IMG/VR virus record: IMGVR_UViG_3300035703_000058
Span: 1 to 64,000 of that record
Direction: 5' to 3' (one strand)
DNA: 64,000 nt
Source: a virus
The translations under genes were made by a program, and so were the position numbers. Under the pieces are notes generated by a model, which ran no database searches, was not told the DNA's origin, and was given only the letters and a program-made list of their open reading frames with translations. Of this stretch, positions 28,456 to 59,727 are shown one piece after another. The stretch's first letter is position 1; every line of letters begins with the position of its first letter.

Positions 28456-29678
28456 CTGCTCCCCCCCGCTACGAGATGCGCGCTGCGGCTGTCGCCGCAA
28501 TCAAGCCGCGGTCATGCTTGGTGGTCTACCTCGTGCTGGTGGACCGGCTCGGCGACAACGCGACCTGCTGGCCCAAGGTCGGGTCCATCATGGCGGACAC
28601 CGGCTGTGCCGAGCGCACCGTGCAGGCCGCCCTTCGCGTGTTGGAGCAGACCGGCTGGATCGCGCAGGTCAAGGACAGCGACCGTCGGGCCAACGAGTAC
28701 AGCCTGCACATCGGGGGCGCCATCGAGCGCGTCACGAAGGCGAGGGACGCGCACGAGGTTGCACCCGATGGTGCAGCCGATTGCACCCCTGCTGAGGCGC
28801 AAGGGATTGCACCCATGGGTGCAGCCGATTGCGCCGATGGGTGCAATCCGTTGCGGCTTGGGGTGCAATCCGCTGCACCCGAACCTGTCCATGAACACCT
28901 ACAAGAACAAGAAATAACTCCAAAACGCGCCTGTGTGCCCACACACGCACACGAGGCCCCCTCGCAGCCCGCCCAACTCAGCCTCACGCCGGAGCCGCAA
29001 CCGGCACCCAAGCCGCAGCCCCAGTCGCAGCCCAAGCGACCGTCGAAGCCACAGCCCCCGAAGCCGGAGCCGCTGGACCCGGCGGTGTGGGATCGCTTCG
29101 CCGCGCTGGCCGTCGAGTCGGGCCAGGTCGGCAAGCTCCCGGAGCCCGGGGCGCAAAGCTACCAGAAGGGCAAGACCCGGGCCGACGTGCTGGCCGCGCT
29201 GGTGGCCGAGCACGGCGCCGAACGGGTGCTGGCGGTCTGGCGGCACACGCTGACCTCGCCGCGGAAGGACCCGACGTGGTGGCGAACGAACCGCGAAGGA
29301 CCCTCGCTGATCGGCGCATTCCTGGCCGGGGAAGCGTTTCAGAAGCTCGCCGACGACCTGGAGGCGGCCCAATCGCGGGTCGCCAAGCCCAAGCTCGTCT
29401 CGGTGCTCACCCTTGATGGCTTGCACCCGATCGACAAGCTCGTCGCGGTGATCCGCCAGTTCGGCGACGAGCCGCCCGCGGAGGAGGTCACCCGGGCCGC
29501 GTGCGGCACCGCCGAGCACTTCGCCGACGTGGTCGAGGCGGCGCGCTACGTCGGCCGCTGGGGCGGCGGCAGGGGCACCGTGCGGGCCGGGTGGTATCAA
29601 ATCTACCAGAACCCGAGTAGCGCGGCGGACTTTCGTAAGGATTGGGATCGCGCCCAGCCGATGCGGCAGGCCCAATGA
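28452..29678 (+). CDS. phage replication initiator (N-terminal wHTH)
   Basis: CWPKVGSIMADTGCAERTVQAALRVLEQTGWI; precedes DnaB. Confidence 0.8.
   Translation: MTAPPRYEMRAAAVAAIKPRSCLVVYLVLVDRLGDNATCWPKVGSIMADTGCAERTVQAALRVLEQTGWIAQVKDSDRRANEYSLHIGGAIERVTKARDAHEVAPDGAADCTPAEAQGIAPMGAADCADGCNPLRLGVQSAAPEPVHEHLQEQEITPKRACVPTHAHEAPSQPAQLSLTPEPQPAPKPQPQSQPKRPSKPQPPKPEPLDPAVWDRFAALAVESGQVGKLPEPGAQSYQKGKTRADVLAALVAEHGAERVLAVWRHTLTSPRKDPTWWRTNREGPSLIGAFLAGEAFQKLADDLEAAQSRVAKPKLVSVLTLDGLHPIDKLVAVIRQFGDEPPAEEVTRAACGTAEHFADVVEAARYVGRWGGGRGTVRAGWYQIYQNPSSAADFRKDWDRAQPMRQAQ
28759..28925. repeat. iteron-like cluster, candidate replication origin
   Basis: About 8 copies of (T/C)TGCACC(C) in both orientations, then an A-rich tract. 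Confidence 0.6.
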
Positions 29679-31186
29679 AGCCCCGCCGCGTCGTCACCCG
29701 GGCCCTGGAGACCCGCTCCTCTCCGCAGTCGCTCGAAGCCGAGCGCGCCGTGCTGGGCGGTTTGCTGTTGCTGGCGGGCGCCCCAACCGACCATGACCTC
29801 CTGCGTGAGCTGTGCGAGGGACTGCGCGCCGAGCACTTCTACAGCTCCGACCACGGACGCCTGTTCGCCCTCATCGCCGAACGCGCCAAGACCGCCGCGC
29901 CGCTCGACGTGCTGGGTCTCGCCGATCACATCATGACGACCGAGACCGCGGTGAACTTCGGTGGCCTCACCTATGCCACCTCGTTGCCCGAGCAGGTCCC
30001 CACCACCGAGAACCTGGACTACTACGCGGGCATCGTGCGCGAGAAGGCCGCGCGCCGCGAAGTGCTCGATCTGGCCAACGAACTGCGCGCAGGCGCTGTC
30101 GATGGCACCGAGCTGGAAATTATCCTCAGCCGCGCCAAGGTCGGGCTCGACAGCCTGGACGGTGCCGGCGGCGAGCGGGTGCGCCGCGATACCCCGGTGC
30201 TCGACACGGTGTCGCGGTTCATGACCCGCATCGACGAAGAGCAGTCGCAGCTCATCCACGGGGACGCCCGCGTCGTCACCTACGGCTTTGAGGCCCTGGA
30301 CAAGTTCGGCCCGCCGTTGCCCGGCGACCTCGTCATCATCGGCGGGCGGCCCGCGATGGGCAAGACCCAGCTCATGCTTCAGGCGCTGGTCCATATGGCC
30401 CAGCAGGGCAAGGAGATGGGCCTGCCCGGCGTGGTCTACGTGTGCTCGCTGGAGATGGGCGAACACCAGCTCATGGCCCGCATCATCAGCTCGCTCTCAG
30501 GCGTGCCCTACAAGAGCATCCTGAACCCACGGTTGCGGCTGACCGACGACCAATATCGCGCCGTCACCGAATGGGCCGATTGGCTCGCCACGCTGCCCAT
30601 CGTGGTCAACGATCAACCGGCCCGCACCATCGAGTCGGTGCGGGCGTCGGCCATCCGACTGCGCCGACGCCACGGCGGAATGCTCGCGATCGGCCTGGAC
30701 TACCTCCAGCTCGCAGGCACCGACGAAGACACCGAGACTCGCGCCCGTGAGGTCGCCTTCATCGCGCAGGGCGCCAAGGAGATCGCCAAGACGGTCCACT
30801 GCCCGTTCCTGCTCGCCGCCCAACTCAACCGCGGCGTCGAGGCTCGCGCCGACAAGCGCCCGTTCCTCTCAGACATCGGCGAGGGTGGGGGCATCGAAGC
30901 CGCCGCCGATCAGGTCGTGTTCCTCTACCGCGACGACTACTACCACGCCGACAGCCCCAACCCCGGCAAGGCCGAAGTCCTGTGCGCCAAGATGCGCAAC
31001 GGCGAGACCGGCAAGGGAATTCTGAACTTTGAGGATGGCGTTTTCAGCGACGTCATCGACTACACGGGAGAAGACTATGGACGTACACCTGACCCTGGAC
31101 GCCAACGGCAACGCCCACATCGGAGACGGCCTGCATCGCGTGGTCATCGACCGCCCCATCCTGGAGGCGCTGAAAACGATGATTGA
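29675..31186 (+). CDS. dnaB: replicative DnaB-like helicase
   Basis: AERAVLG, GRPAMGKT, SLEM, DYLQL, QLNR, IEAAAD. Confidence 0.95.
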   Translation: MKPRRVVTRALETRSSPQSLEAERAVLGGLLLLAGAPTDHDLLRELCEGLRAEHFYSSDHGRLFALIAERAKTAAPLDVLGLADHIMTTETAVNFGGLTYATSLPEQVPTTENLDYYAGIVREKAARREVLDLANELRAGAVDGTELEIILSRAKVGLDSLDGAGGERVRRDTPVLDTVSRFMTRIDEEQSQLIHGDARVVTYGFEALDKFGPPLPGDLVIIGGRPAMGKTQLMLQALVHMAQQGKEMGLPGVVYVCSLEMGEHQLMARIISSLSGVPYKSILNPRLRLTDDQYRAVTEWADWLATLPIVVNDQPARTIESVRASAIRLRRRHGGMLAIGLDYLQLAGTDEDTETRAREVAFIAQGAKEIAKTVHCPFLLAAQLNRGVEARADKRPFLSDIGEGGGIEAAADQVVFLYRDDYYHADSPNPGKAEVLCAKMRNGETGKGILNFEDGVFSDVIDYTGEDYGRTPDPGRQRQRPHRRRPASRGHRPPHPGGAENDD

Positions 31187-50806: not shown

Positions 50807-50879
50807 TGCGACTTGACGCAGCGGTTAGCGTGCTGGCCTCATAAGCCGGAAGTCGGTGGTTCGAATCCACCAGTCGCTA
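50807..50879 (+). tRNA. tRNA with CAT anticodon (Met or Ile2); CCA not encoded
   Basis: Acceptor (T)GCGACT/AGTCGC(T)A; D stem ACGC/GCGT; anticodon arm CTGGC-CTCATAA-GCCGG; T arm GGTGG-TTCGAAT-CCACC. Confidence 0.92.
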
Positions 50880-51239
50880 CTTCTCAGGCCGCTGGACGGG
50901 CCACGCAGCCCTCGGTCGACTGGCTGTCCCGCGCGCCCACCGCTTCGCGAGCTTCAACGCCATCGCGCCCGGACGTCGGCTGCTCGTGCTGGGCAGCACC
51001 TCAGCGGCCACGGCATTCCAGGACCCGAGCCGGACGAACGCCTCGTAGCACCGCGCCCCCGTCAAGCGCCCCGGCGGCCACGGCAGCCCGGCGAGTTGGG
51101 CGTATTCGAGGGCCAGCCGCCGGGCAGTGGCCCGGGGCACGTCCAACCGACCCGCGGCGCCGGTCAGCGAGCACCCGGCGACCATGAGCGCGTACAGGCG
51201 CTGACCGGTGTCCGGTGGATGCAGGCGCGGGCGGGTCAA
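50877..51239 (-). CDS. small HTH-like protein, last gene of the csf operon
   Basis: SLTGAAGRLDVPRATARRLA; TTGA overlap with the cysH stop. Confidence 0.55.
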   Translation of the reverse strand: MTRPRLHPPDTGQRLYALMVAGCSLTGAAGRLDVPRATARRLALEYAQLAGLPWPPGRLTGARCYEAFVRLGSWNAVAAEVLPSTSSRRPGAMALKLAKRWARGTASRPRAAWPVQRPEK

Positions 51240-52075
51240 GATACCGCCCGAACAGCCGGATCGATGTCGGCGGCGAGCTGCCACAGGTCGGGCCACCAGC
51301 GGCGCAGCCATGCGTAATGGCTGCCAATCGTCGCGGGCAGACCGCCCACGACCCACCAGCTCTTGCGCAGAGACAGCGCATCCATCCCCGGGTCAACGCA
51401 CAGATAGCAGGGCAGCAACGGCACCTGCTCGCGAACCAGGAAGGCGTGAACGTCGAGCGCGCTCCAGGCGGCGATGGGCTGGGCCACCGTGAGCCCGTCC
51501 TTGCGCCTGTAGACGCTGCCGCGGGTGGCGTTCATGGCGCGCCCCCGGCTCTCGCCAGCCCTCAGCCCGAGCAGCGCGCCATCGTAGCCATGGTGTAGAC
51601 GATGGGCGTTCAGCAGCCCATAGAAGTGCTCGGCGCTCAGCTCGGCGGTTCTGCCGTGGTGGTCGTTCAGCAGCGACCGCTGCCCGGCGAGCACCGACCA
51701 CAGCGACACACCGGGGCTCAGGATGTCCAGGTGCAGGCCAAGATGGCGGCAAAGGTGCTCGATGTAGGCCCGTTCGCCGGGGTAATCGAGGTCGTCCTTG
51801 ACGCTCACGGCGGGCGGGTGCCAACCATGCAGGGCCAGCAGCGCCGCCATGGCTGAGCTGTCCTTGCCGCCGCTCAGGCTCGCGCACCAACCCACCGACA
51901 CCGCCGCGGCCGCATCCAGCGCCCGTCGCGCGACTGTGATCTTGTGGTCCATGGCTCGGGAGCGCGCGTGCAACGCCACCGCCCGCCACGGATAGTGCAG
52001 GCCCACATCCGAACGCCCGGGCAACGCACCATCGCCGCACCAGGCGATGATCTGGCGGAGCCAGTCAGTCCTCAT
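51236..52075 (-). CDS. cysH: CysH/PAPS-reductase-like PP-loop protein (type IV-B associated)
   Basis: SLSGGKDS, LGLRAGES..R, PIAAWS..DV. Confidence 0.85.
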   Translation of the reverse strand: MRTDWLRQIIAWCGDGALPGRSDVGLHYPWRAVALHARSRAMDHKITVARRALDAAAAVSVGWCASLSGGKDSSAMAALLALHGWHPPAVSVKDDLDYPGERAYIEHLCRHLGLHLDILSPGVSLWSVLAGQRSLLNDHHGRTAELSAEHFYGLLNAHRLHHGYDGALLGLRAGESRGRAMNATRGSVYRRKDGLTVAQPIAAWSALDVHAFLVREQVPLLPCYLCVDPGMDALSLRKSWWVVGGLPATIGSHYAWLRRWWPDLWQLAADIDPAVRAVS

Positions 52076-52658
52076 CGACCATCTCCCAGGCGCCGGAGAA
52101 CTCGACGTTGCGGAACAGCTCGGCGACCCCGGTCACCTGCTTGTAGCGGTAGATGGTGTCCAGGTCCACACCCAGGGCCAGGGCGATCTGTTCGTCCTCC
52201 ATGCCCTGCTCGCACATCCGGCGTATCAGGTCGGCGTCGAGGTCCACCTGATGCACGCCGCGGGCCTTGTTGAACTGCCACGTCGCCGCCAGCCGCCGCG
52301 ACAGATCGTGCGGCAACACCACCACGGGCAGGTAGTCACAGTCCAGCCAGTCCGGCCCCAGCACCATCTTGCGGTGGGCGCCGTCGATGACCACGAACAG
52401 GCGCTGCTCAGGATCGAACACGGTGACGATGGGAAAGCAAAACCCGTTGTCGAGCACCGACTGGAGCAGCAGCTCCATCTTGTCGGGGCTCACGCTGTTG
52501 GGGTTGTAGAAATTCTCGACTACCAGCTCCGCACGAACCAGCACGGCGCGCAGGCAGGGCACCGGAATGCGTCCGCGGGTCTTGGAGGTGATGTAGGCGC
52601 CCTCCGACCCCCCAGCGCGCCACGCCTCGAAGTCGGCCATCGTGTCGATCCTGAGCAT
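52065..52658 (-). CDS. ibrB: IbrB-like ParB/Srx-domain protein
   Basis: N.YNPNSV...MELL..S...GF..PIV; IDGAHR; NKARG.H; C-terminal HTH. Confidence 0.85.
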   Translation of the reverse strand: MLRIDTMADFEAWRAGGSEGAYITSKTRGRIPVPCLRAVLVRAELVVENFYNPNSVSPDKMELLLQSVLDNGFCFPIVTVFDPEQRLFVVIDGAHRKMVLGPDWLDCDYLPVVVLPHDLSRRLAATWQFNKARGVHQVDLDADLIRRMCEQGMEDEQIALALGVDLDTIYRYKQVTGVAELFRNVEFSGAWEMVDED

Positions 52659-53791
52659 CAGAGCACCTCGGCGTAATGGGCGATGAGCGCGTCGCGGGGG
52701 TCGGCCTTGTTGTCAACCGGCAGGTTGTTCTCGTAGTCGTTGAGAACGAGCTGGCGGCATTGCTGCCGGGCCACGAACTCATTGTCCAGGTGCCCGCCGA
52801 ACCGGCGACGTAAGATGTCCGCCTTGGCCGGATCCGGGTGGGTCGCCAACAGGAAATCGCGGTAGACCCGCCACGAACGAAAGTTCTTCGGCAGCTTGCG
52901 GCATCGAAACAGCGTCGCCGCCTTGGCCGTTTCCTGCGCAAGCGCAATGCCCCTGATGCGCTTCTGCAGCCGCGCGTAGGTCTTGGGCTCAAAGGCAGGC
53001 AGGTCGGCCAGCGCGCGAAAGCTGCGCTCGTGTATGAGCGAAGACACTCGCCGCTCGCCCAGCGGGTAGCCCATCTTGTGCTGGAAGTCGTAGACCCTGG
53101 AGTACCTGAGCCCCTCCATGGCGATGTACTTCCAGACATCGTGCGCGTTCCAGTCGTAGATCGGGTAGAGCGTGACGGTGCTCGCCCGGCGTGTGCCCCA
53201 ATAGACGCGCTGGCCGTCGCCGATCTCGATGGGGTGCTTGGTGACCGCGCGCCAGCGGTTCGGGCTCTCTCCGGCGGCGCGCAGGCCGACCAGAAAGGCG
53301 TGGCCGGGGTAGCAGCGGGCGAAAGTCTCGATCACGTCGTAGAAGCCAAAGCCCTTGTTCCGGTCGCGCACGGTGACCTGCTCGGGCGCCCACGGTGGGT
53401 GCTGGATGGCGTCGCGCTCCTTTGCGCGCATCCAGGTTTTGTGCTCCCCCGGCTCCCAGGCGTTGAGCTGACCTTCGGTCAGGCTGGTCGCGTTGGTGAG
53501 GCGGAAAGGCACCTGAAGCCACAGCGGCCGCGTGTTCTCCGGGTACAGCGCCATCAGGTAGCGCACCTGCTCAACGCTGCTCTGGTACATGACCTCCTCA
53601 TCGAGCAGGTGTACGCCGATGCGCAGCCCCCGGCGGTTGGCCTCCACCAAGGCAAGATGAGCCAACACGGTGCTGTCCTTGCCGCCGCTCACGCTGACGA
53701 TCACCTTGTCGCCGAAGGCGTCGAAGACCATGCGGACACGGCGCTGGGCAGCGGCGAGCACGGTCTCACCCGTGTAGTGCTGTCGCGACAT
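52658..53791 (-). CDS. ibrA: IbrA-like PAPS-reductase-domain protein
   Basis: VL.AA..R, SVSGGKDS, DEE, GLRA..ESPNR, YPIYDW...DVW, NDY. Confidence 0.88.
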   Translation of the reverse strand: MSRQHYTGETVLAAAQRRVRMVFDAFGDKVIVSVSGGKDSTVLAHLALVEANRRGLRIGVHLLDEEVMYQSSVEQVRYLMALYPENTRPLWLQVPFRLTNATSLTEGQLNAWEPGEHKTWMRAKERDAIQHPPWAPEQVTVRDRNKGFGFYDVIETFARCYPGHAFLVGLRAAGESPNRWRAVTKHPIEIGDGQRVYWGTRRASTVTLYPIYDWNAHDVWKYIAMEGLRYSRVYDFQHKMGYPLGERRVSSLIHERSFRALADLPAFEPKTYARLQKRIRGIALAQETAKAATLFRCRKLPKNFRSWRVYRDFLLATHPDPAKADILRRRFGGHLDNEFVARQQCRQLVLNDYENNLPVDNKADPRDALIAHYAEVL

Positions 53792-54668
53792 CGCGCACCC
53801 TCCCAGCCCACGCGGTGTAACGGTCGAAGTACCAGCGGTCTACGGCGAGATCCGACACCAGCAGGGTGGCGTTGGCCTGACGGGTCACGGCCAGCGCGTC
53901 GGCGTAGTCGACGAAGTTGTGGGGGACCTCCAACAACAGGCGCGCACGGTCGTCGGCCACGTCGCGAAAGGTGGCCACATCACCACCAAGACGCTGGTTG
54001 CGGGCGAGGTAGGCGTGTCCGTTCAAGGCGCGAAATCGAGCACCACCCCCGACAAGCGCAAGGTTGCGGGGCAGGACGTGGGGGTCCTTGTCGCCGTCTT
54101 CACGCAGCTCGGCGAGCAGGCGTGCCTTCGTCGCGGCGTATGTCGCTTTGGTTCTGGCGTCGGTCTCCACAGCGCGCACGGTGAAGGCGGGCAACAGCGA
54201 ACGACCCACCACCCGCACCTCAGAGAGCATCGACGGCGCGAAGGCGTCGCGCTTCCACTTCGACCGCGTGACCCAGTCGATGAGGATCATGACGTCGTCG
54301 GGCTCGGCGATGATTGGCAAGGTCTGAAAGACCAGGACGTGCGGCGTGCGCTGGAGGTAGTTGCGCAGGCAGTTGTAGCCGAGATCGTGCCGGTTCTGCG
54401 TGCGCAATCCTTCATTGACCACGATCAGGGTGTCGGGGTCGATCCGCTCCAACAGCGGGTAGTAGTACCGGTACATGACGATGTTGGGCCAGTCGATGAA
54501 CAGGCCGGGCGCGCCGATCTCGGTGCTGGGGTCCAGCAGCTCACGATCCCAGCCAGGCAGGCAGAACCGGCGCGGCGTGAAGACGACGACCTTGGTGAGC
54601 CCGCGCTCCACCATCGTCGCGCGGATCATCTCGGCGCGCTCGACGGGGGTGTGGCCCAAGCAGATCAC
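53766..54668 (-). CDS. hypothetical protein, possibly a degenerate SNF2/SF2 ATPase-like fold
   Basis: LIVVNEGLRTQNR and VLVFQTLPII..PDDVMILIDW; GTGA coupling. Confidence 0.55.
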   Translation of the reverse strand: MICLGHTPVERAEMIRATMVERGLTKVVVFTPRRFCLPGWDRELLDPSTEIGAPGLFIDWPNIVMYRYYYPLLERIDPDTLIVVNEGLRTQNRHDLGYNCLRNYLQRTPHVLVFQTLPIIAEPDDVMILIDWVTRSKWKRDAFAPSMLSEVRVVGRSLLPAFTVRAVETDARTKATYAATKARLLAELREDGDKDPHVLPRNLALVGGGARFRALNGHAYLARNQRLGGDVATFRDVADDRARLLLEVPHNFVDYADALAVTRQANATLLVSDLAVDRWYFDRYTAWAGRVRDVATALHG

Positions 54669-55315
54669 GGGGTCACCGTGTAGCCGCGCCTGACCAACCA
54701 GGCGACCGTCCTGGCCAACCGCTTCGGGTTCAGTTCGCTCCCGATGGCGTTCAGCCCGTAGTGGTGGGCCATGCGGCTGGTCATTCCCAAGCCCATGCAG
54801 GGGTCGCACACCCAGTCGCCGGGCGTGAGGGCGAGCCCATCAAAGACGCGGCGGGTCATCGCCTCACCGTGCAGGCCGGTGGGGTCCGTGACGATGGGGG
54901 TGCGGCCGAAGTGCAGCAGCAGGTTGGGCAGCAGGCGAGAACCGCTGCCGTAGAGGACCGCGTAGCGCCCGATGTCCGGCAGCATCCACCCTGGCAGGGT
55001 GCCGGCCACGTCCAGCAGCATGCCGTGGTGCTTCGGGTTGGTCGCCTGCTCCACCAGGACGTCGTCCGCGCCCCGGGCCATGCACGCCACGGCCACCGAG
55101 CACCACGCGCGGAGAAAGGCGTCGTAGGAGTCGCACCGCTCGCGACCCGCGTGGGTGCGCCAGTAGGTCGCGTTGCCAGGGTTCCAGGGCGGATCGCTGT
55201 AGACCAGACGGACACGATCGGGAAGGTGTGCCTGATACCACGCCAGCGTGGTCGGGTCTTGCAGGTCCCCACACAGCAAGAGCTGGCGTTGCTGCCCGCG
55301 GGTGCAAACGTACAT
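54665..55315 (-). CDS. compact beta-class amino (N4/N6) methyltransferase
   Basis: LLCGD, VYSDPPW, VCDPCMGLG.T, GSELN. Confidence 0.8.
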   Translation of the reverse strand: MYVCTRGQQRQLLLCGDLQDPTTLAWYQAHLPDRVRLVYSDPPWNPGNATYWRTHAGRERCDSYDAFLRAWCSVAVACMARGADDVLVEQATNPKHHGMLLDVAGTLPGWMLPDIGRYAVLYGSGSRLLPNLLLHFGRTPIVTDPTGLHGEAMTRRVFDGLALTPGDWVCDPCMGLGMTSRMAHHYGLNAIGSELNPKRLARTVAWLVRRGYTVTP

Positions 55316-55317
55316 GC

Positions 55318-56028
55318 TCACTCCGACGGGCGCGCCTGCCAGCACGCCACCCGCTGCCCGCCGTAGTAGGGCGGACGCAGCGGCAGAAGGGTTTGGACGG
55401 TGTGGGCGGGTGGATTGGACGCCCGCCCCACGGGGAGGTGTCGGAGCCGCACATCGTCGAGGTAGTCGCCCGGGGCGGGACCGCCCACGGCGACCCGCCA
55501 GCCATCAACCCAGCCGATGCCATGGCAGCCCAACCCGCCGATCGCCGGCACCGGCGCGAGCAACCTGCCGAGCTGGTCCAGCGGCGCCAGATCCCAGCCG
55601 AGCGTGCGGTTGACCTCGCCGACGCGGGCCTCGTCCAGCACGCCGGTCCACACCAGCTCGCGGCACGCCGCCCACAGGTGCTTGCGCACGCGCAGGCTCT
55701 TGTCGGGGCCAGCCTTCATGTCCACGGGCCCGCCGGCCCGATGGCGCATGTACCAGTCCACAGGTGCCCGGCGGTGCAGGTGGTGGGTGCGTTCAGGCCC
55801 GACCGGCGCCGCCTGAGAGGCTGCCCACCACCACAGACCCCCGTCGGCGACAACCGCCGCGAACGGCAGCAGGTCCCATACACGCGGGTTGTAGGCCGGG
55901 TGGGCGACCGGGTCCAGCCGATTCAGCCACATCGCCAGCCCAACCCCCGCGAGCGCGTCCAACATCGGCGGGTTGGGCAGGTTCGGCCCGGGCGGGCGCA
56001 GCGCCGCCGTGACGGTGACCGGAATCAC
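55318..56028 (-). CDS. csf3: Csf3 (Cas5-like RAMP), type IV
   Basis: VTA.L...LDA.A; GPDKS.R; Gly-rich loop IGGLGCHGIG.V..W; C-terminal LRPPY. Confidence 0.75.
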   Translation of the reverse strand: MIPVTVTAALRPPGPNLPNPPMLDALAGVGLAMWLNRLDPVAHPAYNPRVWDLLPFAAVVADGGLWWWAASQAAPVGPERTHHLHRRAPVDWYMRHRAGGPVDMKAGPDKSLRVRKHLWAACRELVWTGVLDEARVGEVNRTLGWDLAPLDQLGRLLAPVPAIGGLGCHGIGWVDGWRVAVGGPAPGDYLDDVRLRHLPVGRASNPPAHTVQTLLPLRPPYYGGQRVACWQARPSE

Positions 56029-57053
56029 GACAGCCACGCCAGGATGCGGTCGCGGCGGTCGGCCAGATGTGCCCGCAGCGCCCCCGCACACTGCTCGTCC
56101 GCGGCGTCCATGGTCGCCACCGGGGCGGCGTCGGTCACCGTGAAGGGCGCCGCCGGTTCGAGCTGCCAGGCGCCCCGCACGCGCACCGACAGGGCACCGA
56201 AGTTCTCCCGGGCCACACCGCCCACACGGGCGCCTGAGCGAATCCAGTCCGCGATCGCCAGCAGCAGCGTCCACAGCTCCACCTCGGTGGCGTTCACCAG
56301 CCGGACCTCGCCGATCAGCGGCACCCCCGCGGAGATCGCCTCGTAGGCGTAGGGCATGGACTCGTTGGCCCGGCGGCGCTCCACCGCGCCCACCTTGCCC
56401 CCACCGGCCCGCCGCTCGGCCAGCACACCTGCGTGGACGGCCTGCACCCGCTCGTCCACCGCGAGCAGGAGCGCGGCCGTGGAAGAGCTGGCGAGATCAT
56501 GGCGATATCGCTGTTCGGTGTGGGTGGCCTGCGCAAGCGCAACGGGGCCGCGCCGATCTGCAAACACCGGCTCGGCGCGCCCGTCGATGGTCGCCACCGC
56601 CGGCTGCAGCCCCGCCGCGACGGCCTCCTGTGCCCACACCGCGAGCCCCGCCACCTGCACGGCGCCGCGGTTGGGTGTGCCGGCGTCCATCGACCCGAAC
56701 ACGCCCAGCAGGGGGCAATTCTGCCGCAGCTCCCACTGCTCCAGGGCGTTGTACCCGCCGACGTCGCCCTTCTCGTAGCGCCCGCCCTTCAGCAGCAGGC
56801 GCAGCCGGTCCCGGCCCAACTGCTCGATGCCCAACTCGGCGAGGTAGCGGGCGACGGCGTGCTCGCGCAGCGTCGCCTTGAGCGCCGCCCCGGACAGCAT
56901 CGGCACCAACAACTCCCGGTAGTCGCCGAGCGTGTCATCCCACACCACCATGCGCTGCCGGCGCAGCACCTGCTCGTTGCCCTCGGTGCTCTCGCCGTGC
57001 GCGAGCGGGGCGAGGGTGACGGCGGTGAGGTGAAACACGTAGGAGGCGATCAT
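56025..57053 (-). CDS. csf2: Csf2 (Cas7-like backbone RAMP), type IV
   Basis: TLAPLAHG, VPMLSG..LK..LR, L.KGG, PLLGVFG, M.Y.YE.I..G, VGG....FG. Confidence 0.85.
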   Translation of the reverse strand: MIASYVFHLTAVTLAPLAHGESTEGNEQVLRRQRMVVWDDTLGDYRELLVPMLSGAALKATLREHAVARYLAELGIEQLGRDRLRLLLKGGRYEKGDVGGYNALEQWELRQNCPLLGVFGSMDAGTPNRGAVQVAGLAVWAQEAVAAGLQPAVATIDGRAEPVFADRRGPVALAQATHTEQRYRHDLASSSTAALLLAVDERVQAVHAGVLAERRAGGGKVGAVERRRANESMPYAYEAISAGVPLIGEVRLVNATEVELWTLLLAIADWIRSGARVGGVARENFGALSVRVRGAWQLEPAAPFTVTDAAPVATMDAADEQCAGALRAHLADRRDRILAWLS

Positions 57054-57580
57054 GCGGACTCTCCGGGCGGTGTGGAAACCAAAAGGGCCGGCCTGGAAAG
57101 GTTTCCGGGCTGGCCGGCAAGCGAATCCGGGGCCGCGGCAAGATCGCGCACCAGCTCGCGGGCGACGTTGGCGAGGGTCAACGCGACGGGCAGCGTGGTG
57201 CCGCCAAGCAGGGCAGCGACGTGGCGGCCCGGCTGGGCGTCGGCGGCGCGCACCCACAGCGTCTCGTCATCGCTGAGCCAGCGCCCACCCCGCATGCCCA
57301 GCTTCTCCCCGAGCTTGACGGCCAACTCGTGCAGGCTTCTCGGGCTGGTTCGGGCGACGGCGCGCACCCGGGCCTCAAAGGCGTCGCGGTTCTCGTGATG
57401 CGGCTTGGACCGCCGCAACACCGCGTCGGCGGCGAAGGCGCGGCTCCAGGCCAACGCGAGCACCACGGTCAACTCGGCGCCACCCATGCGGCGCTCCCGC
57501 GCGTCGAAGCCAAGCGCGGGGTTGTCGGCGATGGGGCCGATGTCGCCCACGGCGACCGCGTAGAGGTCAAGGTGACGCAT
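57050..57580 (-). CDS. cas11: Cas11-like small subunit, type IV-B
   Basis: Helical ~176 aa protein between csf1 and csf2 (assigned by position). Confidence 0.55.
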   Translation of the reverse strand: MRHLDLYAVAVGDIGPIADNPALGFDARERRMGGAELTVVLALAWSRAFAADAVLRRSKPHHENRDAFEARVRAVARTSPRSLHELAVKLGEKLGMRGGRWLSDDETLWVRAADAQPGRHVAALLGGTTLPVALTLANVARELVRDLAAAPDSLAGQPGNLSRPALLVSTPPGESA

Positions 57581-58565
57581 CGCGGCCTCGCAGTTCGCCG
57601 ACAGGGCGGCGCAGATAGAGGGCGAGGTCCAGCAACGGGCGGTGCCGATGCTTGGCGATCGTGGGCCCATGCTGGGCGATCAGCGGCAGCGCCTCTGCCC
57701 CGCCGCTGTAGGCGCCGCTGACGAGGGCCTCTTCGCGCACCCCCGCCAGCAACAGGGCCTCGATGGCTTCGATCAGCCGCGCGAGTGTCGGCGCCCTGTA
57801 GGTGATGCTCTGCCCGGCGAACCAGACGACCCGCGGCGCGCCCGGCCGCCACTGCTCGGGCATCGCGAAAAGCGCGCAATGCTTCTTCTCGACGCTCAGC
57901 ACGTTGGCGCCGAGGTGGCCGCCGTCGAGGTCGTCGCGCAGCAGGTGGCGACGCATCGCGGGCTTCTCGGCGTCGGTCATCGGGCGCCAGCGCGGCATGC
58001 CGTTCGGGTCGGGCAACGTGACGTGGTGCCAGACGAAGAACCGCTGCTCCAGCCCCGGAGCGAGGCGGTCGGCCGGGTAGGCGCCGACGTAGCGGACGGG
58101 GCCAACGTCGCCGGGCGCGACGCGCTGGCGGTCGAGCTGTGCGGCCCACGCATCCTCCGCGCTCTTCGGCGTCGCGGGCGTCCACAGCCCGATCGTGCCG
58201 TCCGCAAGCTCCAGCACGAGGCGCTTCTGTGCGGGCGCGCCGTCGATGCAGACCTCGGTGCGCCGGTTGCCCCGCCAGGCCAACGTGGCACGCTCCCGCA
58301 GACGCTCGGCCGCGAGCGACCCGGGCAACGCAAAGCCACTCGCCAGCGTCCACCCACAGGCGGCGCACAGGTGGGTCGCGTGGCCAGCCCGGGCGAAGTC
58401 ACGGGCCGGAAACGTGTCGGGCAGCAACCGCAGCGGCCACCCCTCGCCGGACGCATTCACCCCACACCACCAGCAGGGACCGGTGTAGGCGGTAAAATCG
58501 GGATGTGTGGGGCGGCCTGCGGCCTCCCACAGCACCCATGTCGCGCTCGGCATCATGTAGGCCAT
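57567..58565 (-). CDS. csf1: Csf1 (Cas8-like large subunit), type IV
   Basis: N-terminal CWWCG...CAAC zinc motif; KKH motif; heads the csf cluster. Confidence 0.7.
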   Translation of the reverse strand: MAYMMPSATWVLWEAAGRPTHPDFTAYTGPCWWCGVNASGEGWPLRLLPDTFPARDFARAGHATHLCAACGWTLASGFALPGSLAAERLRERATLAWRGNRRTEVCIDGAPAQKRLVLELADGTIGLWTPATPKSAEDAWAAQLDRQRVAPGDVGPVRYVGAYPADRLAPGLEQRFFVWHHVTLPDPNGMPRWRPMTDAEKPAMRRHLLRDDLDGGHLGANVLSVEKKHCALFAMPEQWRPGAPRVVWFAGQSITYRAPTLARLIEAIEALLLAGVREEALVSGAYSGGAEALPLIAQHGPTIAKHRHRPLLDLALYLRRPVGELRGRDASP

Positions 58566-58596
58566 GTACCCCAACGGGCCACAACGCGCAACCCTG

Positions 58597-58947
58597 CTAC
58601 TCGGCGACCGACACCGCCCCCGCCAGCCACGGCCCAAGCGGCGGCGGCAGCTTCGCCGCGTACAGCGCCAGCACCGCGGCGTCCACCACCTCGTCGTGGC
58701 CGGCATCGCGCAGCCCACGCCCCAGCCCGGCGAGCGCCACCACCAACAGGGACAACAGATCCAGGTTAGCCCGCGCCGCAGACGCCAACAGGCGCCCGAT
58801 CGGGGTGTCGTCGAGCGTCATCCCGTAGACGACATCGGCGATGACGATGGCGTCGCGGGGGTCGTCGGGATCGTGGGGACCCAGCTCGGGCTGGGTCGCG
58901 CCAGGGCAACCGTGGATCAGGTCGGTCAACTCGCACAGGTCGTACAT
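58597..58947 (-). CDS. hypothetical protein, first gene of the csf operon
   Basis: GAGG RBS; ORF MYDLCEL... Confidence 0.5.
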   Translation of the reverse strand: MYDLCELTDLIHGCPGATQPELGPHDPDDPRDAIVIADVVYGMTLDDTPIGRLLASAARANLDLLSLLVVALAGLGRGLRDAGHDEVVDAAVLALYAAKLPPPLGPWLAGAVSVAE

Positions 58948-59163
58948 CGGCACCTCGTCTGGTACATGGCGCGAGCAGGCGAAGTGTGAATCTTTTTCTG
59001 CATGTTGGCGCGTTGGTTAGCTCGGCCATCGGACCGGTTGTACACTTCGCCAACGTTCGGCCTTTCCGCGTGGGGCCGTGAATGGCGCCGACCCCCGGTG
59101 CGTCTACGCGCGACTTGCCACCAAAGGCTGTCCGGCGTAGAGTGGCGGTCAAAAGGAGTCCCC

Positions 59164-59727
59164 ATGCTCACACTCGCTCTTCTCGCCCTGCTCGGATGCG
59201 CCCCCACCTGCAACGAGGTGGAGGGGGCGATCTGTGCGGACGACGTTCAGGCGCTGCAGGAGCGTATGGACCAGCTCGAAGCCGCTGGCGCCACCTACGC
59301 CTGGTTCGACCAGGACGGCGTCCAGGTGACCGATGGGCCGGAGCTGGTGTGGTTTGACGAGGCGGGGGTGCTTTGGCAGGTGGACGCCGATCGAGGCATC
59401 CCCGACGCCTACGCCACCGAATACGACGTGGCGGGAACGGTCTTCCACATGACCGAGGACTGCTCGGACCCCGGCTACTACGGCGGGTTGGCCTCGCCCA
59501 AGGTGGCCTTCTACAACGGGGACGCCCGCGACGATTACCCGGTCTACGTGCGCGATGCGTCACCCGACGAGATTTACGCCCGGGCCGTGGCTTACGAGGC
59601 CGATAGCGGCGAGTGCCGCGAGGGCGGGCCGAATCGTGACCAGCACCTGGTTCCGACGACCGAGCTGCACGAGATTGCCCGACCCGATGTGGTGTGGCCA
59701 GCCCCGCTCTACCCGAAGACCTTGTAG
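59164..59727 (+). CDS. putative lipoprotein
   Basis: AAGGAG RBS; MLTLALLALLGC lipobox-like start; acidic mature part. Confidence 0.65.
   Translation: MLTLALLALLGCAPTCNEVEGAICADDVQALQERMDQLEAAGATYAWFDQDGVQVTDGPELVWFDEAGVLWQVDADRGIPDAYATEYDVAGTVFHMTEDCSDPGYYGGLASPKVAFYNGDARDDYPVYVRDASPDEIYARAVAYEADSGECREGGPNRDQHLVPTTELHEIARPDVVWPAPLYPKTL

Follow-up and report, generated by a model that had tools for sequence, protein, structure and literature searches.

Subtype IV-B of CRISPR-Cas is exemplified by the locus on plasmid pMYCSM02 of Mycobacterium sp. JS623 (PDB 7JHY), in which csf1, cas11, csf2 and csf3 follow one another in this order, accompanied by a CysH-like partner with SGGxDS as its PP-motif and without a conserved cysteine, and from which an array, cas6, adaptation genes, a helicase and a nuclease are all missing. 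According to one proposal (PMC8175902), this partner, CasCysH, is an ATP alpha-hydrolase and modifies the nucleic acid to which the Csf complex binds. As for ParB-like proteins, phage T-dioxygenases need such activators on dsDNA (PMC13229309), and DpdB of the Dpd DNA modification system is a ParB-like ATPase (PMC12839542). The operon described here shares the Csf gene order, the absences, the type of CysH-like partner and the location on a mobile element (a plasmid in JS623, a tailed phage here) with the JS623 locus, and it carries a second set of genes in addition. We found no published account of the pairing of Csf with an IbrAB cassette, nor of the cassette composed of SNF2 helicase, dSNF2, IbrA, IbrB and methyltransferase.

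An operon of type IV-B and nucleic acid modification genes in a tailed phage

The window, i.e., the whole stretch of 64,000 nucleotides that was analysed, corresponds to bases 1-64000 of a 75,417-bp record from a subsurface metagenome, which belongs to a tailed phage (portal, tape measure, baseplate and DnaB genes, 127-bp terminal repeat). The GC3 frame plot and the list of open reading frames confirm what the preliminary description of this DNA had claimed, namely, a minus-strand block of 11 co-oriented and mostly overlapping genes at 50877-58947, in the order g1, csf1, cas11, csf2, csf3, MTase, g7, ibrA, ibrB, cysH-like and g11 (Table 1). Nine of the 10 junctions overlap, the exception being a gap of about 31 nt between g1 and csf1: csf1 and cas11 share 14 nt, cas11 and csf2 meet in ATGA, GTGA recurs at three junctions (csf2/csf3, csf3/MTase and MTase/g7), the overlaps of g7/ibrA, ibrA/ibrB and ibrB/cysH measure 26, 1 and 11 nt, respectively, and cysH and g11 meet in TTGA. 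The reported lack of an array, cas6, cas1/2 and dinG in the window was upheld as well. Across the whole 75,417-bp record, no CRISPR-like array was detected, Cas1 gave no match, and the Helicase_C_2 (DinG type) and SNF2-rel_dom (SNF2 helicase) domains are absent; a local Cas6-like HMM has no match in the phage record, and there is no effector nuclease among the operon genes. A tRNA-Met gene adjoins the operon; none of 27 related loci has a tRNA gene in this position.

Table 1. Genes of the phage operon, in operon order
Gene	Coordinates	Strand	Length	Assignment and evidence
g1	58597..58947	-	116 aa	First ORF of the operon, no assigned family; GC3 plot supports the frame
csf1	57567..58565	-	332 aa	Type IV large subunit, Cas8-like; PADLOC Csf1_0_IV, 3.2e-8
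cas11	57050..57580	-	176 aa	Small subunit; in the type IV-B position, flanked by csf1 and csf2
csf2	56025..57053	-	342 aa	Type IV Cas7; PADLOC Csf2_0_IV, 1.4e-31; phrog_22746, 4e-21
csf3	55318..56028	-	236 aa	Type IV Cas5; PADLOC Csf3_0_IV, 8.1e-10
MTase	54665..55321	-	218 aa	Beta-class N6-adenine/N4-cytosine DNA methyltransferase; Pfam N6_N4_Mtase, phrog_67
g7	53766..54668	-	300 aa	Degenerate SNF2-like protein (dSNF2); AF2 and Foldseek
ibrA	52658..53791	-	377 aa	PAPS-reductase-family PP-loop ATPase with DUF3440; Pfam, phrog_2302
ibrB	52065..52658	-	197 aa	ParB/Srx-like N-terminal domain and C-terminal HTH; phrog_2159 (ParB-like), 3.3e-35
cysH-like	51236..52075	-	279 aa	CasCysH-type PP-loop protein; Pfam PAPS_reduct, 1.7e-10
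g11	50877..51239	-	~120 aa	Last ORF, possibly HTH; frame supported, coding statistics weaker

HMM, profile or fold comparisons bore out the preliminary calls for the nine genes from csf1 to cysH-like. Csf2 is a type IV Cas7, its profile matching Csf2 of PDB 7JHY at 2e-19; the sequence of Csf3 fits the type IV Cas5 models. The Csf proteins of this phage are very divergent: Csf2 scores 25.6 bits against NCBIfam cas7_csf2, with a cut-off of 130 bits, and has only 17 close homologues, every one of them metagenomic. The start of csf1 was set by the frame plot, with ATG codons at 58565, 58556 and 58553 each possible. Homologues of Csf1 (30-37% identity) are encoded upstream of csf2 in the related loci L002, L003 and L006-L008, and those of Csf3 after csf2 in L002-L008. 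Our HMMs for Csf and CysH recognise the JS623 genes, a local Csf1 HMM made from the above homologues recovering the reference csf1 at 1e-8 and a local Csf3 HMM recovering csf3 at 3e-25. For Cas11, the only PDB match of the profile is 7jhy_h, Cas11 of 7JHY (E 0.084), and the AF2 model is all-helical (pLDDT 69), with 7jhy_g as the top Foldseek match (probability 0.97, TM 0.52/0.61); the protein aligns weakly with its positional counterparts in other loci, and most Csf loci have an ORF of 125-190 aa in this position. In the CysH-like family, SGGKDS is conserved and a cysteine is conserved nowhere. Its relatives on plasmids (E<=1e-6) are confined to those of Rhodococcus and Mycobacterium, the plasmid with the JS623 type IV-B locus among them, and a weak match to Asn_synthase was also obtained.

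The methyltransferase matches Pfam N6_N4_Mtase with 29.4 bits (cut-off 26.7) and phrog_67 at 1.2e-8, and its motifs, DPP(W) followed by the SAM motif D-x-C-x-G-x-G, are each at least 90% conserved among 54 family members. The product of g7 has no match in Pfam; its AF2 model (pLDDT 94.6) matches the ATPase cores of ISW1, Chd1 and Ino80 in Foldseek (E ~2e-8, TMq ~0.6), and the nearest Atlas clusters are SNF2-related (0.94). It lacks a P-loop, strand 1 being followed by a 3-residue loop, and its motif II reads N-E-(C/G); we propose that g7 is a catalytically dead SNF2-like adaptor. The g7 family is small: 1.84 billion proteins include 218 cluster representatives of it, in 3 of which g7 and an SNF2 helicase form one chain (Rosetta-stone fusions). 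IbrA matches PAPS_reduct (2.1e-9), DUF3440 (7.8e-7) and phrog_2302 (5.6e-69), with weak matches to ATP_bind_3 and TilS and weak, partial matches to the DndC and BrxP HMMs; in an alignment of 42 sequences, SGGKDS is invariant and the number of invariant cysteines is zero. In IbrB, D-G-x-H-R and many further residues are at least 90% conserved, and the match to HTH_7 (6.7e-5, 23.4 bits) falls slightly below the cut-off of 23.8.

The two end ORFs are of a different kind. The first, g1, has no match in Pfam, NCBIfam, PADLOC or PHROG, is without a homologue in L002/L009, the sister locus, and lies outside the conserved system. The last gene, g11, previously called an HTH protein, has small HTH proteins as its nearest Atlas clusters (0.87-0.89), a lead only, and no HMM matches it. 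It is not kept in L009.

Csf and SNF2 helicase genes alternate beside one cassette

The preliminary description regarded the four extra genes, MTase to ibrB, as a peculiarity of this operon. They represent instead a widespread phage cassette that also occurs without Cas genes, then with an SNF2 helicase. Sampling via g7 yielded 57 loci beyond the window (53 viral and 4 from MAGs, with near-duplicates among them) that carry g7-IbrA-IbrB, mostly with the methylase; the order g7-ibrA-ibrB is kept in Csf and SNF2 loci, and the methyltransferase, found in nearly all loci, is placed before g7 or after ibrB. In 23 of the 57, the cassette has csf1-csf2-csf3 as neighbours, the gene order taking at least 8 forms, so that the combination of csf genes, methyltransferase and ibrAB noted for the window is a recurrent one; the other 34 loci have the cassette without Csf. 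A CysH-like gene adjoins the cassette only where csf genes are present, namely, in 21 of the 23 Csf loci and in none of the 34 Csf-less ones; among the Csf loci it is missing in L037 and in L050, where the contig stops short of the expected cysH-like position. Conversely, 25 loci, none of which has Csf, encode a complete SNF2 helicase (SNF2-rel_dom and Helicase_C) immediately upstream of g7. Csf and an SNF2 helicase occur together in 0 of the 57 cassette loci. The SNF2 HMM matches in L042 and L044 are fragments. The slot upstream of g7 is occupied by Csf in L014, L040, L050, L052 and L053 and by SNF2 in L025, L027, L051 and L063, and the modules are interleaved, with cysH or csf3 beyond the cassette, in the window and in L019, L032, L035, L038 and L065.

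On the IbrA tree, 8 switches between Csf and SNF2 are needed, at least 4 of them forced by well-supported branches; label shuffles gave a mean of 16 switches, and 0 of 500 were as low as 8. Between the window and L009, identity amounts to 83% for IbrA, 72% for IbrB and 30-39% for Csf1, Csf2 and Csf3. The Csf proteins diverge far faster than the cassette, a gap that may reflect module replacement rather than co-evolution. Furthermore, none of IbrA, IbrB, g7 and the methyltransferase is found within 8 kb of the JS623 reference locus, and IbrAB is present in 4 of 11 viral type IV-B loci in a CysH-seeded sample (6 of the 9 newly found loci lack it), which indicates that type IV-B exists independently of the cassette. 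No g7 or Csf2 homologue was found in 50,697 GenBank phage records, and no CRISPR array or mini-array in the flanks of L002, L003, L006 and L007. Some relatives (L006, L007, L015 and L072) retain a Cas6-like gene, which suggests processed guide RNAs.

A complex model of IbrA and g7 has an ipSAE of 0.65, a value attained by 58 of 80 solved complexes and by 2 of 110 mismatched pairs; the best control reached 0.06. Contacts agree by at least 35% between model runs, with a partner pLDDT of at least 88, and link IbrA residues 364-377 with g7 residues 181-203 and 275-279, with invariant residues on both sides. The modelling supports, short of proof, the binding of g7 to the conserved C-terminal tail of IbrA.

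A possible composite system

We lean, with slightly better than even confidence, towards one composite system of two modules, in which Csf and CysH stand in for the SNF2 motor as the cassette's partner that engages nucleic acid. One module would be the array-less type IV-B effector (Csf1, Cas11, Csf2 and Csf3) with its CasCysH-type PP-loop partner, and the other the phage cassette of methyltransferase, dead SNF2-like adaptor g7, IbrA and IbrB. In phages without Cas genes, the true SNF2 helicase upstream of g7, at times fused to it, would drive the cassette, and Csf with CysH would fill its place in the window phage and in roughly two of every five cassette loci. IbrA would be anchored by g7 via its conserved C-terminal tail, and IbrB would act on duplex DNA, in the way of the ParB-like proteins that accompany other DNA-modifying enzymes. 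The Csf ribonucleoprotein, built on an RNA, may bind and open nucleic acid instead of an SNF2 translocase powered by ATP. Both PP-loop proteins, CysH-like and IbrA, would perform ATP alpha-hydrolysis and, because both lack a conserved cysteine, probably adenylation chemistry rather than sulfur transfer, resulting, with the methylase, in covalent marking of DNA. The purpose would most likely be protection or marking of the phage genome against host restriction. The observation that underlay the preliminary interpretation is confirmed and the interpretation itself partly supported: the operon may encode the RNA-guided modification machine that was envisaged. The alternation of Csf and SNF2 beside one cassette provides a testable clue to type IV-B function.

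Phage accessory genes gather in hot spots for reasons besides common function, and type IV-B with CysH and the IbrAB cassette could be unrelated modules of one variable accessory island of tailed phages, packed tightly because compact operons are selected for, and functionally separate. We consider this improbable: each module is indeed found alone, gene order is highly variable, and the Csf proteins and those of the cassette differ greatly in evolutionary rate; however, the strict exclusion of SNF2 over 4-8 or more switches in the IbrA tree, the interleaved orders and the GTGA coupling over module borders (csf3/MTase and MTase/g7) would be left unexplained, and Csf sits in the exact slot upstream of g7 that SNF2 has elsewhere. 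PP-loop ATPases commonly modify tRNA, e.g., those of the TilS, ThiI and TtcA types, and a Csf filament holding a tRNA or transcript for modification by the two PP-loop enzymes would fit the tRNA-like leanings of the weak IbrA matches, the Asn_synthase match of CysH-like and the adjoining tRNA-Met gene. The JS623 Csf complex, moreover, co-purified with heterogeneous non-CRISPR RNA (PMC7937560, PMC8175902). Yet the methylase is of the DNA N6/N4 family, the ParB-like IbrB and SNF2 helicases handle DNA, and the tRNA neighbour is not conserved, making an RNA substrate quite unlikely.

Phage-borne interference or exclusion, with Csf silencing competitor or host DNA or RNA and the cassette marking the phage's own DNA as self, has precedents: type IV-A silences without a nuclease, type IV loci target rival plasmids (PMC7038947, PMC12669027), and in Dnd and type 4 BREX the modification is the task of PAPS-reductase family proteins (PMC12839542), with IbrA weakly matching DndC and BrxP. 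The Cas6-like gene of some relatives points in the same direction. Nevertheless, the phage and the flanks inspected are devoid of arrays and mini-arrays, the operon is devoid of an effector nuclease, many phages have the cassette without a restriction-like partner, and the alternation with SNF2 is accounted for less naturally, so that we rate this possibility as unlikely. The preliminary description also proposed that guide-less Csf takes up host crRNAs as an anti-CRISPR sponge, with the cassette separately shielding phage DNA. An array-less, phage-borne locus would suit this idea, which is treated in PMC7038947; that work itself rated it unlikely for a machine of such complexity, and neither the obligate CysH partner nor the exclusion between Csf and SNF2 is accounted for. 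We found no support for a sponge here and regard it as very improbable.

Comparison with known systems

The JS623 locus differs from the operon in having no cassette within 8 kb, whereas in the window the cassette lies between csf3 and cysH and is translationally coupled. The 25 Csf-less SNF2 cassette loci share the g7, IbrA, IbrB and MTase families with the window and lack a CysH-like gene, with the SNF2 helicase encoded ahead of g7; in the window, this is reversed. Previously known IbrA/IbrB pairs (E. coli ibrAB; phrog_2302 and phrog_2159) consist, as here, of a PAPS_reduct and DUF3440 protein followed by a ParB-like one, with less than 35% identity to the window homologues in cultured phages; the phage pairs include those of Flavobacterium and Mycobacterium phages. 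Subtype IV-A likewise has a nuclease-less Csf complex and places Csf and a superfamily-2 motor in one functional circuit. However, its crRNA-guided complex recruits the DinG helicase, whereas Csf and SNF2 are alternatives rather than partners here, and it has an array and Cas6, unlike the array-less window phage. Since IbrA and CysH-like have no conserved catalytic cysteine, phosphorothioation of the Dnd kind is unlikely. Dnd (DndC/DndB), type 4 BREX (BrxP), Dpd (DpdA/DpdB) and the ParB-dependent T-dioxygenases nonetheless combine, like the window, a modifying enzyme with a ParB-like protein, and the likeness extends to the PP-loop/PAPS-reductase fold beside a ParB/Srx fold and to the setting of mobile-element conflict (PMC12839542, PMC13229309).

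An array-less type IV-B module in a tailed phage

The IMG/VR phage record carrying the operon, of which the window makes up bases 1-64000, is 75,417 bp long, with a 127-bp terminal repeat and a GC content of ~70%. The window encodes a portal, a tape measure, a baseplate hub and wedge, a DnaB-type helicase and a large DNA methylase, and the structural and replication genes among these (portal, tape measure, baseplate, DnaB-type helicase) identify the virus as a tailed phage. Among public runs, only one contained the complete region; it is a subsurface metagenome and may be the sample of origin. The window sequence was found in none of the RNA runs. The operon comprises g1, csf1, cas11, csf2, csf3, a methyltransferase (MTase) gene, g7, ibrA, ibrB, a cysH-like gene and g11. 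Nine of the ten junctions overlap (as ATGA, GTGA or TTGA, or by 1-26 nt), and the sole gap, between g1 and csf1, measures ~31 nt. Eleven genes on the minus strand joined in this way bear out the gene arrangement given in the preliminary description, as do the analyses listed in the table below. For g11, which had been labelled HTH, a weak protein-atlas lead does point to an HTH-like protein, but no family match was obtained. The tRNA gene adjoining the operon was the only match in an Rfam search, and its adjacency to the operon is not conserved across 27 related loci.

Features of the window and of related loci, with their positions (those with an L handle refer to the related locus)
Feature	Position	Strand	Basis or remark
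Operon, eleven genes	50877-58947	minus	ORF listing, GC3 statistics, frame plot
g1, first operon ORF		minus	no family found
g11, last operon ORF		minus	
tRNA-Met (CAT), converging on operon	50807-50880	plus	overlaps g11 stop by 4 nt
Divergent gene on other flank of operon	59002-59727	plus	
Second DNA methyltransferase, 712 aa	25928-28066	plus	replication region; phrog_116, 6.4e-95
Palindromic motif, about five copies	28746-28880		spacing 22-24 bp
DnaB-like helicase gene	29642-31186		
Radical-SAM enzyme after csf3	L003:7638-9182; L005:2616-3902		B12-binding-like N-terminal domain
Cas6-like proteins	L006:7608-8396; L007:4400-5239; L015:6660-8534; L072:9214-9981		weak Cas6b_C/CRISPR_Cas6 matches; array-less loci
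Protein Y, ~260 aa	L006:9672-10448; L067:8220-9005		overlaps ibrA start, in g7 place
CasCysH-type gene, Rhodococcus jostii RHA1 pRHL2 (L070)	431655-432458		local HMM, 6e-45
ibrA-ibrB-MTase trio, Fusobacterium varium plasmid pFV113-g1-2 (L066)	65027-67312		
Cassette-linked SNF2 helicase, 820 aa	L058:6013-8475		LAGLIDADG_3 domain ahead of ATPase core

Elsewhere in the genome, the 712-aa methyltransferase and the operon MTase together give the phage at least two DNA methylases. Palindromes of the TTGCACCC-N3-GGGTGCAA type fall within or next to the ORF that immediately precedes the DnaB-like helicase gene, and resemble replication-origin iterons or operator sites.

Profile and structure comparisons confirmed the Csf assignments made from the sequence. 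Csf2 matched the PADLOC profile Csf2_0_IV (1.4e-31), and a profile built from the window Csf2 and 17 metagenomic homologues (A1) matched the Csf2 chain of the type IV-B complex structure PDB 7JHY (2e-19). Its score against NCBIfam cas7_csf2 was 25.6 bits, far under the 130-bit cut-off, and the protein is thus a divergent type IV Cas7. It has few relatives: a single-protein scan of viral contigs and an A1 profile scan of genome contigs both found nothing, and megablast and tblastn searches of GenBank phages returned no relative of the operon region, g7 or Csf2. Csf1 (PADLOC Csf1_0_IV, 3.2e-8) and Csf3 (Csf3_0_IV, 8.1e-10) are, on these matches, the predicted large subunit (small Cas8-like) and Cas5 of a type IV-B complex, and local HMMs from the window clade pick up csf1 (1e-8) and csf3 (3e-25) of the reference type IV-B locus on the plasmid of Mycobacterium sp. 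JS623. The ORF between csf1 and csf2 had no HMM match of its own. A profile of it with its positional counterparts gave a single PDB sequence match, Cas11 chain 7jhy_h (E 0.084), and its AF2 model is helical (pLDDT 69), with chain 7jhy_g as the top Foldseek match (prob 0.97, TM 0.52/0.61). Position, sequence and predicted fold are therefore consistent, if modestly so, with a Cas11 small subunit.

The array, cas6, cas1 and DinG genes that had been reported missing from the window are missing throughout: no CRISPR-like array and no match to Cas1, to Helicase_C_2 (DinG type) or to a local Cas6-like HMM was found across the whole 75.4-kb record. With array, Cas1, Helicase_C_2 and Cas6-like proteins as the features covered, we counted the locus as lacking an array, cas6, adaptation genes, a DinG/RecD helicase and a nuclease, as expected of type IV-B.

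Two PP-loop proteins, a methyltransferase and a ParB-like protein

The cysH-like protein matched PAPS_reduct (1.7e-10) and has an invariant SGGKDS motif; among plasmids, its relatives are confined to those of Rhodococcus and Mycobacterium, the JS623 type IV-B plasmid included. Judged by its PAPS-reductase fold, SGGxDS motif, lack of a catalytic cysteine and apparent membership of a clade shared with type IV-B, it agrees with CasCysH as described in PMC8175902. The CasCysH-type gene of pRHL2, by its sequence, belongs to the Cas-linked CysH clade as an orphan, since it has no csf within 8 kb and large zinc-ribbon proteins on its flanks.

The MTase matched Pfam PF01555 (N6_N4_Mtase; 29.4 bits, cut-off 26.7). 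Two motifs are each at least 90% conserved, D-P-P-W (residues 33-36 in the family alignment) and D-x-C-x-G-x-G (close to the C-terminus), and DPPW ahead of the SAM motif indicates the beta-class order. IbrA carries PF01507 (PAPS_reduct; 38.1 bits, cut-off 22.5) followed by PF11922 (DUF3440; 29.5 bits, cut-off 25), and matched phrog_2302 (5.6e-69); its homologues in GenBank phages are <35% identical. IbrB, whose gene overlaps ibrA by 1 nt, matched the ParB-like phrog_2159 (3.3e-35) and no Pfam ParB model at E<=0.01; it has a conserved D-G-x-H-R motif and a C-terminal HTH. As regards Dnd-type phosphorothioation, the conserved catalytic cysteine is absent from both PP-loop families: among 42 IbrA sequences no cysteine is invariant or at least 90% conserved, and the cysH-like family has no conserved cysteine. 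Matches to DndC and TIGR03183 were partial and far under the cut-offs.

A degenerate SNF2-like protein predicted to bind IbrA

The 300-aa g7 protein had no HMM match, PF00176 included. Its AF2 model (pLDDT 94.6) matches the SNF2 ATPase cores of ISW1, Chd1 and Ino80 (E ~2e-8, TMq ~0.6); Foldseek returned at least 170 PDB matches at E<=0.001, of which the best 50 are all SNF2-family ATPases, and the protein atlas agrees on this identity. The two RecA-like lobes of the SNF2 fold are present, but Walker A and DExx are not: a 3-residue loop without GK[ST] follows strand 1, leaving the P-loop missing, and at motif II, where D-E-x is expected, the family has [NDH]-E-[CG] and the window protein N-E-G. 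Thus, g7 has the SNF2 fold but is a degenerate rather than an active member.

The g7 family contains 54 sequences, and 218 cluster representatives were found among 1.84 billion proteins. In three of these representatives an SNF2 helicase and then g7 are joined in a single chain, and the HMMs of g7 and of the SNF2 helicase found beside it in related loci (see below) give weak reciprocal matches. From this, g7 appears to be a degenerate paralogue acting together with the helicase. Three extended representatives with unexplained N-terminal parts (P0150, P0172 and P0176) had no match to the local Csf HMMs, so that no Csf-g7 fusion was seen.

A model of the IbrA-g7 complex scored 0.65 versus 0.06 for the best control. 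Of 80 solved complexes, 58 reached that mark, as did 2 of 110 mismatched pairs. Contact agreement between runs was at least 35% and partner pLDDT at least 88. In the modelled interface, the C-terminal tail of IbrA (364-377, with D364 and P365 invariant) lies against g7 181-203 and 275-279, which include the invariant g7 residues P196, P200, L203 and W279; the conserved g7 motifs concerned are D-P..P-R-x-L and W-Y. Binding of g7 to the conserved IbrA tail is thus supported by modelling, not proven.

Csf and an SNF2 helicase are mutually exclusive neighbours of one cassette

Co-occurrence of csf genes with MTase and ibrAB, which the preliminary description had proposed to survey, proved recurrent. 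A survey seeded with g7, with iterated local HMMs run over all ORFs, covered 57 loci besides the window (53 viral contigs and 4 MAG contigs). The order g7-ibrA-ibrB is invariant across them, and the MTase gene immediately precedes g7 or immediately follows ibrB; we refer to these four genes as the cassette. In 23 loci, csf1-csf2-csf3 stands beside the cassette, in at least 8 gene orders, and most of these have an ORF of 125-190 aa in the Cas11 position. The CysH-like gene is present in 21 of the 23, whereas it adjoins the cassette in none of the 34 Csf-less loci. In 25 loci, the gene immediately upstream of g7 encodes a complete SNF2 helicase (SNF2-rel_dom and Helicase_C), and the two genes often overlap as ATGA. 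The two partners occur together in no locus, and no SNF2 helicase is encoded anywhere in the record of the window phage. Csf occupies in L014, L040, L050, L052 and L053 the exact slot held by SNF2 in L025, L027, L051 and L063. Sister cassettes that differ in partner include L042 against L046, L047 and L049, and L063 against L024. When the Csf/SNF2 label is mapped onto a maximum-likelihood tree of IbrA, 8 changes are required, at least 4 of them forced by branches with SH-aLRT >=95; shuffled labels required 16 on average and as few as 8 in 0 of 500 replicates. Given these repeated switches, the exclusion does not reflect a single lineage split. Among the nine loci with neither partner, five are cut short upstream and no third type of partner emerged.

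Several loci show further rearrangements. Upstream of the cassette in L017 and L055, both partner-less, are free-standing homing endonuclease genes (LAGLIDADG and RRXRR), and the LAGLIDADG_3 domain of the L058 helicase could represent either an intein or a homing endonuclease fused to the helicase. In L059 and L060, g7-ibrA-ibrB is present as a tandem pair, as is ibrA-ibrB in L041 and L054, and L056 ends in a truncated second g7. The pFV113-g1-2 plasmid, a mobilizable plasmid from a human isolate, carries a minimal trio next to which no g7, Csf or SNF2 gene is annotated; its IbrA is 56% identical to that of the window.

Among the nearest Csf2 relatives with usable context, a 133-kb viral contig (IMGVR_UViG_3300013121_000015; L002/L009) has the same gene order as the window. 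Identity is 83% for IbrA, 72% for IbrB, 63% for CysH, 59% for g7 and 56% for MTase, but only 30-39% for Csf1/2/3, a contrast that reflects either fast evolution of Csf or its replacement by a homologous Csf module. Other loci differ in content: L006 reads csf-cas6-like-MTase-ibrB-Y-ibrA-cysH and L007 csf-cas6-like-cysH, while L003 and L005, among the closest relatives of the window Csf2, continue from csf to a radical-SAM enzyme rather than to cysH or the cassette; there the array-less type IV-B core is joined by an accessory enzyme of another kind. No CRISPR-like repeats were found in L002, L003, L006 or L007, and Cas6-like genes without repeats in the flanks of L006 and L007 hint at a processed, non-CRISPR RNA. 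In loci ordered MTase-ibrB-Y-ibrA, the g7 place is taken by protein Y, which has no Pfam match; no homology to g7 was detected for the 258-aa protein of L006 (hhalign against the g7 family, prob 2.9%). The plasmid NZ_CP071309.1 of the cultured haloarchaeon Actinarchaeum halophilum YIM 93972 likewise reads csf1-cas11-csf2-csf3-cysH-x-MTase-ibrB-Y-ibrA, with an unrelated 261-aa protein where g7 would be.

A proposed composite system and its alternatives

Taken as a whole, the data best support a composite system, which we hold somewhat more likely than not, in which one cassette works either with Csf and CysH or with the SNF2 helicase. Csf would supply nucleic-acid binding or opening, by analogy with the helicase it replaces, and g7 would tether IbrA. 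IbrB would be a ParB-like activator on duplex DNA, analogous to those of the ParB-dependent phage T-dioxygenases (PMC13229309) and of Dpd (PMC12839542). As no cysteine is retained in either PP-loop enzyme, their chemistry would be adenylation and not sulfur transfer; methylation would come from the methylase. We infer a DNA substrate and a counter-defence purpose. The preliminary description had proposed an RNA-scaffolded or RNA-guided modification machine or a crRNA sponge; its observation of the operon is confirmed and its interpretation is supported in part. In a stronger and rather unlikely form, an RNA-guided DNA writer, the Csf ribonucleoprotein would be a natural RNA-templated DNA opener that took the place of an ATP-driven SNF2 translocase on repeated occasions and delivers a covalent modification; the mark would be made by IbrA, IbrB, the CysH-like protein and the methylase, and placed on selected DNA, which might be the genome of the phage itself, guided by phage transcripts.

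The JS623 locus is recognised by the local Csf and CysH HMMs but has no IbrA, IbrB, g7 or cassette MTase within 8 kb. A CysH-seeded, g7-independent scan of viral contigs yielded at least 11 Csf loci; among the matches listed, 4 of 11 carry IbrAB and 2 of these also g7. The pairing with the cassette is therefore frequent in uncultured phages and not obligatory for type IV-B. That the two modules are merely co-located by chance is improbable to us beside the repeated exchange of Csf and SNF2 in one slot, and we give a phage-borne exclusion system a similarly low probability. RNA rather than DNA as the substrate sits less well with a ParB-like IbrB; we hold it quite unlikely. Least credible is a crRNA sponge.

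Relation to known type IV-B systems

To our knowledge, type IV-B is the one widespread CRISPR-Cas subtype without known function, and we know of no explanation for IbrA/IbrB either, common as they are in phages and plasmids. The window locus and its relatives tie these two puzzles together through a comparative fact, namely that on one conserved cassette Csf with CysH can stand in for an SNF2 helicase, and the reverse, but the two exclude each other. The operon is of high interest because the question of type IV-B function becomes one of concrete experiments: Csf is predicted to engage or open DNA for the cassette and to contact g7/IbrA, DNA marks and bound RNA can be measured, and A. halophilum is a cultured carrier of a related locus.

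Published passages on type IV-B describe the link to cysH, occasional Cas6 and carriage by phages and archaeal viruses, and the neighbourhood figures add an ADP-ribosyltransferase and an N6-MTase (PMC7038947, 10.1101/270033, PMC8175902, PMC10848311, PMC12669027). Neither the ParB passages of PMC8175902 and PMC12669027 nor the cysH and IV-B passages of the other three mention an IbrA/IbrB or a ParB-like partner, and no SNF2-like partner is described in the passages of these five papers. No publication joining type IV-B with components of the cassette was found in the literature searched. The sole handle on this subtype has so far been its CysH-like partner, itself unexplained (PMC7038947, PMC8175902). 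If the modification reading is true, the operon would encode a natural RNA-linked DNA-modifying machine; if the RNA-guided reading is true as well, the purpose of both type IV-B and IbrAB would be settled, and type IV-B would be the first natural RNA-guided epigenetic writer.
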